Origin: Verrucomicrobiota bacterium
GTDB lineage: Bacteria > Verrucomicrobiota > Verrucomicrobiia > Limisphaerales > AAA164-E04
Assembly: GCA_047947115.1 (NCBI GenBank)
Contig: CP170459.1
Location: forward strand, 2,336,001 to 2,400,000
Length of the DNA: 64,000 nt
Direction: 5' to 3'
Shown: positions 4,339 to 50,876 of the stretch, piece by piece
Numbering within the stretch: position 1 is the first letter of the stretch
How the letters are laid out: every line of letters starts with the position of its first letter
Translations under genes and position numbers: made by a program
Notes under the pieces: model-generated
The model's database searches: none
What the model was told of the DNA's origin: nothing
What the model saw: only the letters and a program-made list of their open reading frames with translations

Positions 4339-4435
4339 GGAGAGTGAAGGGTGCCTGGTGGTCCCCGCGGTCTTCAAAACCGTTGAGAGGCGGTCAACCC
4401 GTCTCTGGTGTGTTCGATTCGCACCCTCTCCGCCA
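4339..4435 (+). tRNA. selC: tRNA-Sec (anticodon TCA)
   Basis: Anticodon arm GCGGT-CTTCAAA-ACCGT, long variable arm AGAGGCGG/CCGTCTCT, T loop TTCGATT, G discriminator plus encoded CCA; 97 nt. Confidence 0.93.
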
Positions 4436-49593: not shown

Positions 49594-50534
49594 TCACTCC
49601 CGGGCCTGGTCAGTTGAAGTCGCAGGTGTAAGCGCCGCATTCAATGCAGGTTCCAGTTTGACGGCATGGCTTGATCCGGCGACAGCGAAGACACGTTCTC
49701 CCTTTTTGACCAGATCCAACAGAATGGCAAGGAAGTGTCGGTCGCGGATGATGTTTGCATCCATTTCACTTAAAAAACCCGGCATTTCATATTGGTCGGA
49801 TACCGTCCTCCAGTCGGGTCCGTTTGGAAAATGTTTATCCCAGGCATGTTGCAGGGATTGCATATTGGGGAAGGCGTTTTCTATTCCTGGCCATTGGTTT
49901 CGCTTTTTCCTGACAGATTCCACTACTGCATCCGGATCATCCGGGCGCCCATATCGCAGGTTCGAGAAGTAGGGGTGAGGATGAATCGAAGCGCCACTTG
50001 TTCTTTTGAATAGTCTTTCAGTAAATGTTCGATTTGAATTTCTATGGGTGGTTCCCAAGTATAGGTTGGGATGTTATTTATCCTTGCCAGAGCGTGAACA
50101 AATCCCGGTTCGCCAAACGTCCCGACCGGATCCATGAGGCCGGGGAACAAGATGCCCAGGCGACTTTCACAAAGAGCAACACTGGGGGCAAATTGTTTCC
50201 AGCGGGTTTCCATATCTTTGAGTTGAATATCGTCTGGGTCCTTCGTGTGTTCTGCTCCATAAAGAAGTATGGCTCCTCCATGTGAAGTCGTGATTTCCAC
50301 GACGAAGGGACGATCGTGCGAATCGATCAGCCCGCCATAATGTTGGTCGCTCAGAATGAGCCTCTGGTACCATTCGGCGCTGCCTTCGTGAGGTTGGTAG
50401 TCATCGAGAGGCCGCCATGCGAAAAGCAAGGCATAGATGCCAAACACGATGGCCGCGATGAACCAGATGGCGACCAAACGACAGAACCATGTGAGGATGA
50501 ATCGCCAGACTTGTTTGGCCAGGGGGGCTTTCAT
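49594..50534 (-). pseudogene. membrane-anchored hypothetical protein frameshifted near 49975
   Basis: ...EQVALRFIL in one frame continues as PYFSNLRYG...RDRHF...AGSSHAV in the next frame; one base appears to be missing. Confidence 0.7.
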
Positions 50535-50660
50535 ATGGACGTATGACTTCGTGTGTTGGGTGAACCATTTCAACACACGAAGTCACACGTCAGTTTCATA
50601 AAAATTAAGAAAGGGCAGGGAACGTCCCTGAACAGCTGACTGGGCTGTGAGCCGTTTCTG

Positions 50661-50876
50661 TCAGGGCTGTTTGCGACTTTGATCCGAGGCAGGGGGAGTA
50701 GTGTTCTGGTGTGAATCTGGTTGCTCGACCGAGCAACTATCGGCCATTCACGTGGATATGCCAAGCCTGGGCAAAATGACCATTTGCAGCAACAGGTAGA
50801 CGCCGACAAACAACAGCACGCTCCCAAGGGGACTGCCGACGAAGTTCACGAGAAACGTCTTGATTGCCTCAAACAT
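50661..50876 (-). CDS. candidate small membrane selenoprotein (71 aa, Sec43)
   Basis: MFEAIKTFLVNFVGSPLGSVLLFVGVYLLLQMVILPRLGIST-UGA(50750-50748)-MADSCSVEQ...KQP-stop. SECIS-like hairpin follows the UGA, and tRNA-Sec is in the same window. Confidence 0.7.
50720..50737 (-). promoter_or_regulatory. candidate bacterial SECIS element
   Basis: GUUGCUC-GGUC-GAGCAAC: perfect 7-bp stem starting after a 10-nt spacer from the UGA, with G first in the apical loop. Confidence 0.7.

Follow-up and report, generated by a model that had tools for sequence, protein, structure and literature searches.

An in-frame UGA in a short reading frame

The window (the whole stretch of 64,000 nucleotides that was analysed) carries on its minus strand a short reading frame that begins 31 nt past the stop of a HAD hydrolase gene (50908), the gap given in the first-pass annotation. 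The recomputed frame was as claimed there, with an ATG at 50876, 42 codons ending in LPRLGIST, a TGA at 50750-50748 and 28 more open codons up to the stop at 50663-50661. With the UGA read as selenocysteine (Sec) the product has 71 residues, including U43 and C48. The hairpin behind the UGA also had the geometry first described, a 7-bp stem with a G-first GGUC loop 17 nt from the UGA at about -10 kcal/mol, and the tRNA-Sec(UCA) gene reported at 4339 was confirmed. The features are collected in Table 1.

Table 1. Features of the candidate selenoprotein gene and the tRNA-Sec gene in the window
Feature	Position	Strand	Basis
Micro-selenoprotein gene, 71 aa, single-helix (predicted)	50661..50876	minus	ATG 50876, final stop TGA 50663-50661; reading frame and homologues
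Predicted transmembrane helix, residues 17-35	50772..50828	minus	Kyte-Doolittle 2.43; AlphaFold helices; alignment
In-frame UGA, predicted Sec43	50748..50750	minus	TGA 109, Cys 10, TAA/TAG/TGG 0 in 119 loci
Cys48, second residue of U-x4-C	50733..50735	minus	Cys at +5 in 90/97 UGA forms and 142/147 parsed library proteins
SECIS-type hairpin, 7-bp stem, GGUC loop 17 nt from UGA	50720..50737	minus	Folding, SECIS model, relatives in the order
tRNA-Sec(TCA) (selC), trans-acting	4339..4435	plus	Found within the window

Residues 17-35 are strongly hydrophobic (Kyte-Doolittle mean 2.43), in agreement with the single transmembrane segment proposed earlier. The AlphaFold model, built on a five-sequence alignment, adds a preceding helix and has helices at 2-14 and 16-37 followed by a low-confidence tail (mean pLDDT 63.9, pTM 0.33). 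Helix 2-14 is the N-terminal extension of the window protein and is absent from most family members in the alignment.

Metatranscriptome contigs from four runs cover the gene, two of them short and spanning little beyond it, with no variant at the UGA; they give a weak hint of transcription, with DNA carry-over possible. One substitution at 50674, in the tail region, occurred in two RNA runs with the UGA and hairpin unchanged. At least 85 nt separate the final stop from the start of the next gene on the same strand. Two consecutive minus-strand ORFs of 217 and 154 aa at 49594-50576, in different frames and overlapping by 136 nt, look like one gene broken by a frameshift; they had no Pfam or NCBIfam match and were not found between the micro-selenoprotein gene and EamA in close relatives.

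Selenocysteine machinery and genetic code

In a profile search the genome's selA, selB and selD exceeded the curated cut-offs, all three lying outside the window and selD with one TGA. Together with the tRNA-Sec gene, the machinery that the first-pass annotation had left to be confirmed is all present. SECIS elements were compared with the genome's own fdhA-type and selD hairpins in place of E. coli fdhF: the selD element has a GGA loop 17 nt from the UGA and the fdhA-type element a GGUCU loop at 18 nt. Among the genome's long ORFs TGA is used as the stop more often than any other codon (578 of 1,170) and is followed by a median of 17 open codons. The code is therefore not reassigned here, and a code with UGA as tryptophan was rejected.

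A family with UGA or Cys at one site

UGA occupies this position in a genome from the same genus and in one from a different family of the order; on a metagenome contig the position is Cys. Of the 76 proteins that a profile search returned, most are 'hypothetical' stubs of about 29 aa ending just before the UGA codon; annotation misses or truncates the gene almost everywhere. A larger profile reached 1,884 clusters (50% identity, E up to 0.001). Among the best 150 library proteins, 147 were parsed (one of them wrongly) and three dropped; the residue at the site was Cys in 123, Trp in 17 and another residue in 7, and position +5 was Cys in 142. The 17 proteins with Trp are probably gene calls under another code.

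A scan of species-representative genomes found 366 places matching one narrow motif. The best 80 of these 366 were taken, scored against a full-length Cys query, which favours read-through-like matches. By title they were mostly Desulfobacterales or Deltaproteobacteria, with Planctomycetaceae, Obscuribacterales, Calditrichaceae, Bacteroidota and others among the rest. A further 27 loci came from profile searches of 300 genomes in the phylum to which the Planctomycetaceae record belongs, and 11 from such searches of 250 genomes of the window's order. An earlier search of 400 genomes of the phylum with the five-sequence profile gave no convincing member, and the one of its three weak matches that was inspected was unrelated.

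With L130 dropped as a duplicate of L056, the codon at the site was TGA in 109 and Cys in 10 of 119 distinct loci, and TAA, TAG and TGG did not occur, in a sample weighted to full-length-like forms that rare true stops could escape. The homologues thus carried UGA or Cys at position 43 throughout (119/119), the pattern that the first-pass annotation had proposed to look for, and none ended there in TAA or TAG. Three loci (L155, L205 and L212) were missed by the pattern and read separately; all have TGA, and they stand outside the 93-sequence SECIS count given below.

Conservation extends past the UGA, another point proposed there for checking: Met or Leu at +1 and Cys at +5 were each present in 90 of 97 UGA forms, with tails of 9-51 aa. 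The proposed U-x4-C motif is therefore the usual one, but its second Cys is not obligatory, being absent in 5/97 UGA forms. Cys at +5 is also kept in the Cys forms, which have no hairpin to preserve, so the constraint on it is at the protein level. Some members have extra Cys, either as CC or as a further C in the tail. The second Cys is missing from the UGA members L033/L211, L149, L150, L151, L153 and L154, most of which retain the hairpin by the SECIS filter; they suggest that Sec alone is enough in some lineages. A core of 40 residues is too little sequence to resolve the order of Sec/Cys switches.

The hairpin in the window and in the family

The SECIS filter was our own implementation of the bSECIS constraints rather than bSECISearch. 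As given in section 5 of PMC13188914, the model has a loop of 3-9 nt, a stem of 4-16 bp, a G in the first two loop positions, a spacing of 16-37 nt and a minimum free energy at or below -7.5. The window hairpin passes. Its z-score against dinucleotide shuffles was only -0.8 to -1.2, and 22.5% of synonymous shuffles of the window sequence passed the model too. The window hairpin alone is thus not beyond chance, and the evidence beyond chance comes from the family.

Among the distinct UGA forms 70/93 passed the SECIS model, against 13.4 expected from synonymous shuffles, and 23/93 failed it. None of nine Cys forms passed, and ordinary TGA gene ends of this genome passed in 73/600 cases. In the window's order the hairpin with the GGUC loop was found in 9/9 newly found UGA forms; the order's single Cys form lacks it, though its genome has selB. 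The covariation expected of the hairpin was seen in a 68-sequence alignment, where both sides had changed in 63 cells of the commonest stem register, compared with 21.4 in shuffles (0/500 reached it), and this register outdid all six slid versions. Two of the five covariation measures were not above shuffles. Only 69% of cells pair, because the position of the stem shifts by at least one base from lineage to lineage.

Co-occurrence with Sec genes

In four sets of genomes with the UGA form, selB was found in 41/44, 24/24, 9/9 and 2/2, that is in 76/79, and the remaining three have selA. All 79 tested UGA genomes therefore carry selB or selA; the UGA form without Sec machinery, an outcome that would have spoken against the earlier proposal, was seen in no tested genome. 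Among the genomes with Cys forms selB was present in 2/10, and none of the five searched for selA, out of the eight without selB, has it. The Fisher p of about 1e-7, calculated without the last two genomes, is overstated, most assemblies being incomplete and kin not independent. Of the 80 motif-scan genomes (best 80 of 366), the selB test covered 50. An Rfam search for tRNA-Sec in five genomes was left out, three results being ambiguous with scores near the cut-off.

The genomes with two or three selB matches, at scores above or close to the cut-off, are G457, G462, G477, G478, G501, G509, G539, G568, G634, G647, G651 and G732, and selA was matched twice in G487. These extra matches may be paralogues, split genes or bin contamination.

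Topology, fusions and neighbouring genes

In 105/107 members more Lys and Arg follow the helix than precede it. This suggests, as a rough indication, that the C-terminus is cytoplasmic, for the count of charges is crude and compares windows of unequal length, the first of which may reach upstream of the start. In two library members (P0181 and P0226) the family domain is N-terminal to a thioredoxin domain; the P0181 fusion may be a read-through artefact, because its thioredoxin part begins with a Met and its end is aberrant. A search for longer fused forms gave two matches, neither with a known domain.

Sulfane-sulfur genes, here a panel of persulfide-dioxygenase-like, rhodanese, SQR-like, TauE, DsrE, YgaP-like, YeeE and TsdA-like genes, were found within 3 kb at 12/100 loci versus 2/1,013 tiles of this genome. 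For Trx, TrxB or CcdA the figures were 9/100 and 3/1,013. Both enrichments are overstated because the panel was drawn from the same loci, with self-matches, and the baseline is one genome poor in such genes. No sulfur neighbour was present at 88/100 loci, and one was present in 7/91 UGA forms versus 5/9 Cys forms. At L159 and L161 it is flanked by a metallo-beta-lactamase (dioxygenase)-rhodanese gene on one side and an SQR-like gene on the other, and TauE-like, DsrE and TsdA-like genes lie close by; L050, L056 and L096 have similar gene sets. Other loci adjoin YgaP-like, YeeE, thioredoxin, thioredoxin reductase, CcdA or DUF302 genes.

The usual neighbours in Desulfobacterales-like loci are an ECF sigma with a zf-HC2 anti-sigma factor, a 4Fe-4S protein with a membrane protein, an FmdB zinc ribbon and sigma-54 activators. 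At 14/80 loci (best 80 of 366) the gene immediately downstream encodes an ECF sigma. In the 13 for which the filter gave its frame, the start of this gene falls within the read-through frame, shortly after the hairpin and 34 or 40 nt past the first UGA base. Translation of the ECF sigma gene could possibly be coupled to Sec insertion. The overlap loci are L049, L073, L085, L088, L090, L093, L097, L098, L100, L106, L108, L117 and L127; the ECF sigma gene overlaps the tail by roughly 25-45 nt, and a zf-HC2 anti-sigma gene often comes next.

In the window's order the contexts vary between genomes, and no panel gene was matched at its 11 short loci (about 1.5 kb on each side). The HAD/recR neighbourhood noted at first is present, but it is confined to near-identical relatives and uninformative on function; a functional link to dnaX-ybaB-recR-HAD was rejected, the arrangement being seen only in G001 and near-identical metagenome contigs.

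Relation to described families

Pfam and NCBIfam scans of the window protein and 22 members gave nothing below E 0.01, in line with the first-pass annotation, which had recognised no classical family. The family has nevertheless been listed with U before, in survey supplements only and without a function, and a claim to a brand-new family fails. 'Unknown (Geobacter lovleyi)' stands in Table S3 of PMC5029168 (2016) for five organisms, without sequence, and its identity with the window family rests on the shared label. Six sequences in a 2025 supplement, compared by eye, share with the window protein one hydrophobic helix, LP[RK][LM]G[IV]xT-U-[ML]-x-x-x-C and a short polar tail, one of them with the same LGIST-U-M context. 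The window protein differs from the supplement-listed family in an N-terminus 13 aa longer, and its hairpin differs in register, with the GGUC loop at 17 nt versus AGGU at 16 nt in most Desulfobacterales-like loci.

The accessible part of Table 1 of a 2026 review (119 families) has no entry by family name, and the family is absent by name and by motif terms from deep-Sep Table S1. The label was not found in the available portions of PMC2398784 or PMC13326102, nor by term search in the supplement of PMC11227280. Full-text searches gave no paper on the family's function among the matches listed, as far as the texts were accessible, and no first description was found in the accessible portions of the literature examined.

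With other bacterial SelB/SECIS genes (the bSECIS model and the genome's selD and fdhA-type genes) the window gene shares the in-frame UGA, a 7-bp stem, a 4-nt GG-first loop, the spacing of 17 nt, an energy below -7.5 kcal/mol and the Sec machinery. Unlike their products, the window protein has no thioredoxin-like or enzyme fold and is mostly a membrane anchor and a disordered tail. It was not placed in the thioredoxin-fold UxxC/CxxU class, having a four-residue spacing and a model of two helices with a low-confidence tail. The PDB sequence search gave chance helix matches only (E at least 0.13), and the ESM Atlas, queried with a natural Cys homologue, gave one cluster at 0.88, a lead only.

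The YgaP-like TM family (PF11127, formerly DUF2892) comprises small membrane proteins that lie beside some family members and in the same sulfur operons, and some of them end in a similar LG[IV]xTC. Unlike the present family they have two helices, and homology was not supported, with no match among 22 members and an hhalign probability of 7-17% over 9-19 columns. By analogy, the eukaryotic SELENOK and SELENOS may be likened to the window protein as small single-pass membrane selenoproteins with a disordered cytosolic part. In SELENOK and SELENOS the Sec is near the C-terminus and far from the helix, and the SECIS is in the 3' UTR.

Proposed function and alternatives

As judged from sequence comparison, the product of the gene is very likely a selenoprotein of 71 residues that spans the membrane once. 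This selenoprotein reading, first made from the window alone, is strongly supported by the Sec/Cys pairing, the conservation past the UGA, the covarying hairpin and the Sec machinery. With high confidence we would expect SelB to bind the GGUC hairpin and insert Sec at codon 43. If selenium were lacking, translation would end after 42 aa and both redox residues would be missing. The helix would anchor the protein N-out/C-in, the LPxLG turn would put Sec at the membrane surface with U-x4-C just beyond the membrane on the cytoplasmic side, and the tail would be a disordered spacer.

A redox function is probably indicated by the conservation of U-x4-C, the two thioredoxin fusions and the sulfane-sulfur neighbours of a minority of loci. 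If Sec is inserted, the chances are slightly better than even that Sec43 would react with an oxidant or a sulfane-sulfur (persulfide) species, form a selenenylsulfide with Cys48 and be re-reduced by thioredoxin. That the family forms a membrane-tethered Sec/Cys redox relay linked to both thioredoxin and sulfane sulfur we would put at about an even chance. In this organism the protein would be a stand-alone redox accessory, since no sulfur operon surrounds the gene. A still broader proposal is doubtful and is put forward tentatively: a bacterial selenoprotein family among the most widespread, yet almost undocumented, in which a minimal membrane-tethered selenol would connect membrane sulfur enzymes with thioredoxin as a persulfide/selenosulfide relay and so be the bacterial equivalent of SELENOK/SELENOS, and in sulfate-reducer relatives the read-through might double as a selenium-gated switch on the overlapping ECF sigma.

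The U-x4-C of such a selenoprotein could instead bind a soft metal or Fe-S species, as a sensor or chaperone and without redox cycling. Two chalcogen ligands on a flexible loop, the extra Cys of some members and the neighbouring HmcB/HybA-like Fe-S proteins (10/80), FmdB zinc ribbons (15/80; both in the best 80 of 366) and zf-HC2 anti-sigma factors would fit, but the UGA, and mostly the hairpin too, persists in members that lack the second Cys, the thioredoxin fusions and sulfur operons indicate thiol chemistry, and there is no CxxC metal knuckle. Metal binding is considered unlikely.

Selenium-dependent read-through, or the peptide itself, might mainly serve to control a neighbouring regulator, for which the overlapping ECF sigma genes speak, together with the sigma-54 activators flanking 13/80 loci (best 80 of 366). 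The ECF arrangement is, however, limited to related Desulfobacterales-like genomes, which are kin and not independent, the window has a wider gap to its next same-strand gene, and the UGA-less Cys forms retain the protein motif, which argues for a function of the protein. A mainly regulatory role appears rather improbable. That the protein is a small subunit for the structure or assembly of a membrane redox complex, Sec/Cys providing a covalent or cofactor link, is improbable: the single helix with its conserved juxtamembrane motif, the position at the end of a run of a 4Fe-4S protein and a membrane protein in 10/80 loci (best 80 of 366) and the adjoining SQR-like genes would suit it, but no partner is fixed across lineages, the gene stands alone in the window's order, and no solved structure was matched. 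That the UGA is an ordinary stop behind a 42-aa peptide with an incidental hairpin, or Trp under a reassigned code, is very improbable: databases do end the protein at the UGA, the lone hairpin is not significant, Trp stands at the site in some library proteins and UGA-to-Trp reassignment has reportedly occurred in some bacterial phyla (PMC13462651), but neither TAA/TAG nor TGG occurred at the site in the 119 loci, M/L-x-x-x-C is conserved past the UGA, the UGA form tracks the Sec machinery and TGA is a normal stop in the genome.

The membrane selenoprotein family favoured here is, with its 1,884 clusters and 366 narrow-motif places, far larger than the supplement lists suggest. With no Pfam or NCBIfam model and no entry by name in the 2026 catalogue, yet so many clusters, counts of selenoproteomes are probably short by one common family. 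Proteins of 50-70 residues with natural Sec, Cys and no-second-Cys variants are also an unusually simple object for studying what selenium contributes at a membrane surface.

Other likely selenoprotein genes lie on contig C1 of this genome near 25239 (plus strand), 1762526 (minus), 3793083 (minus) and 3463805 (plus). Three of these four candidates have W-U-x-x-C contexts, which by motif we take to be peroxiredoxin- or redoxin-like, and one has an fdhA-type U-H context; a G-first hairpin is present in each.
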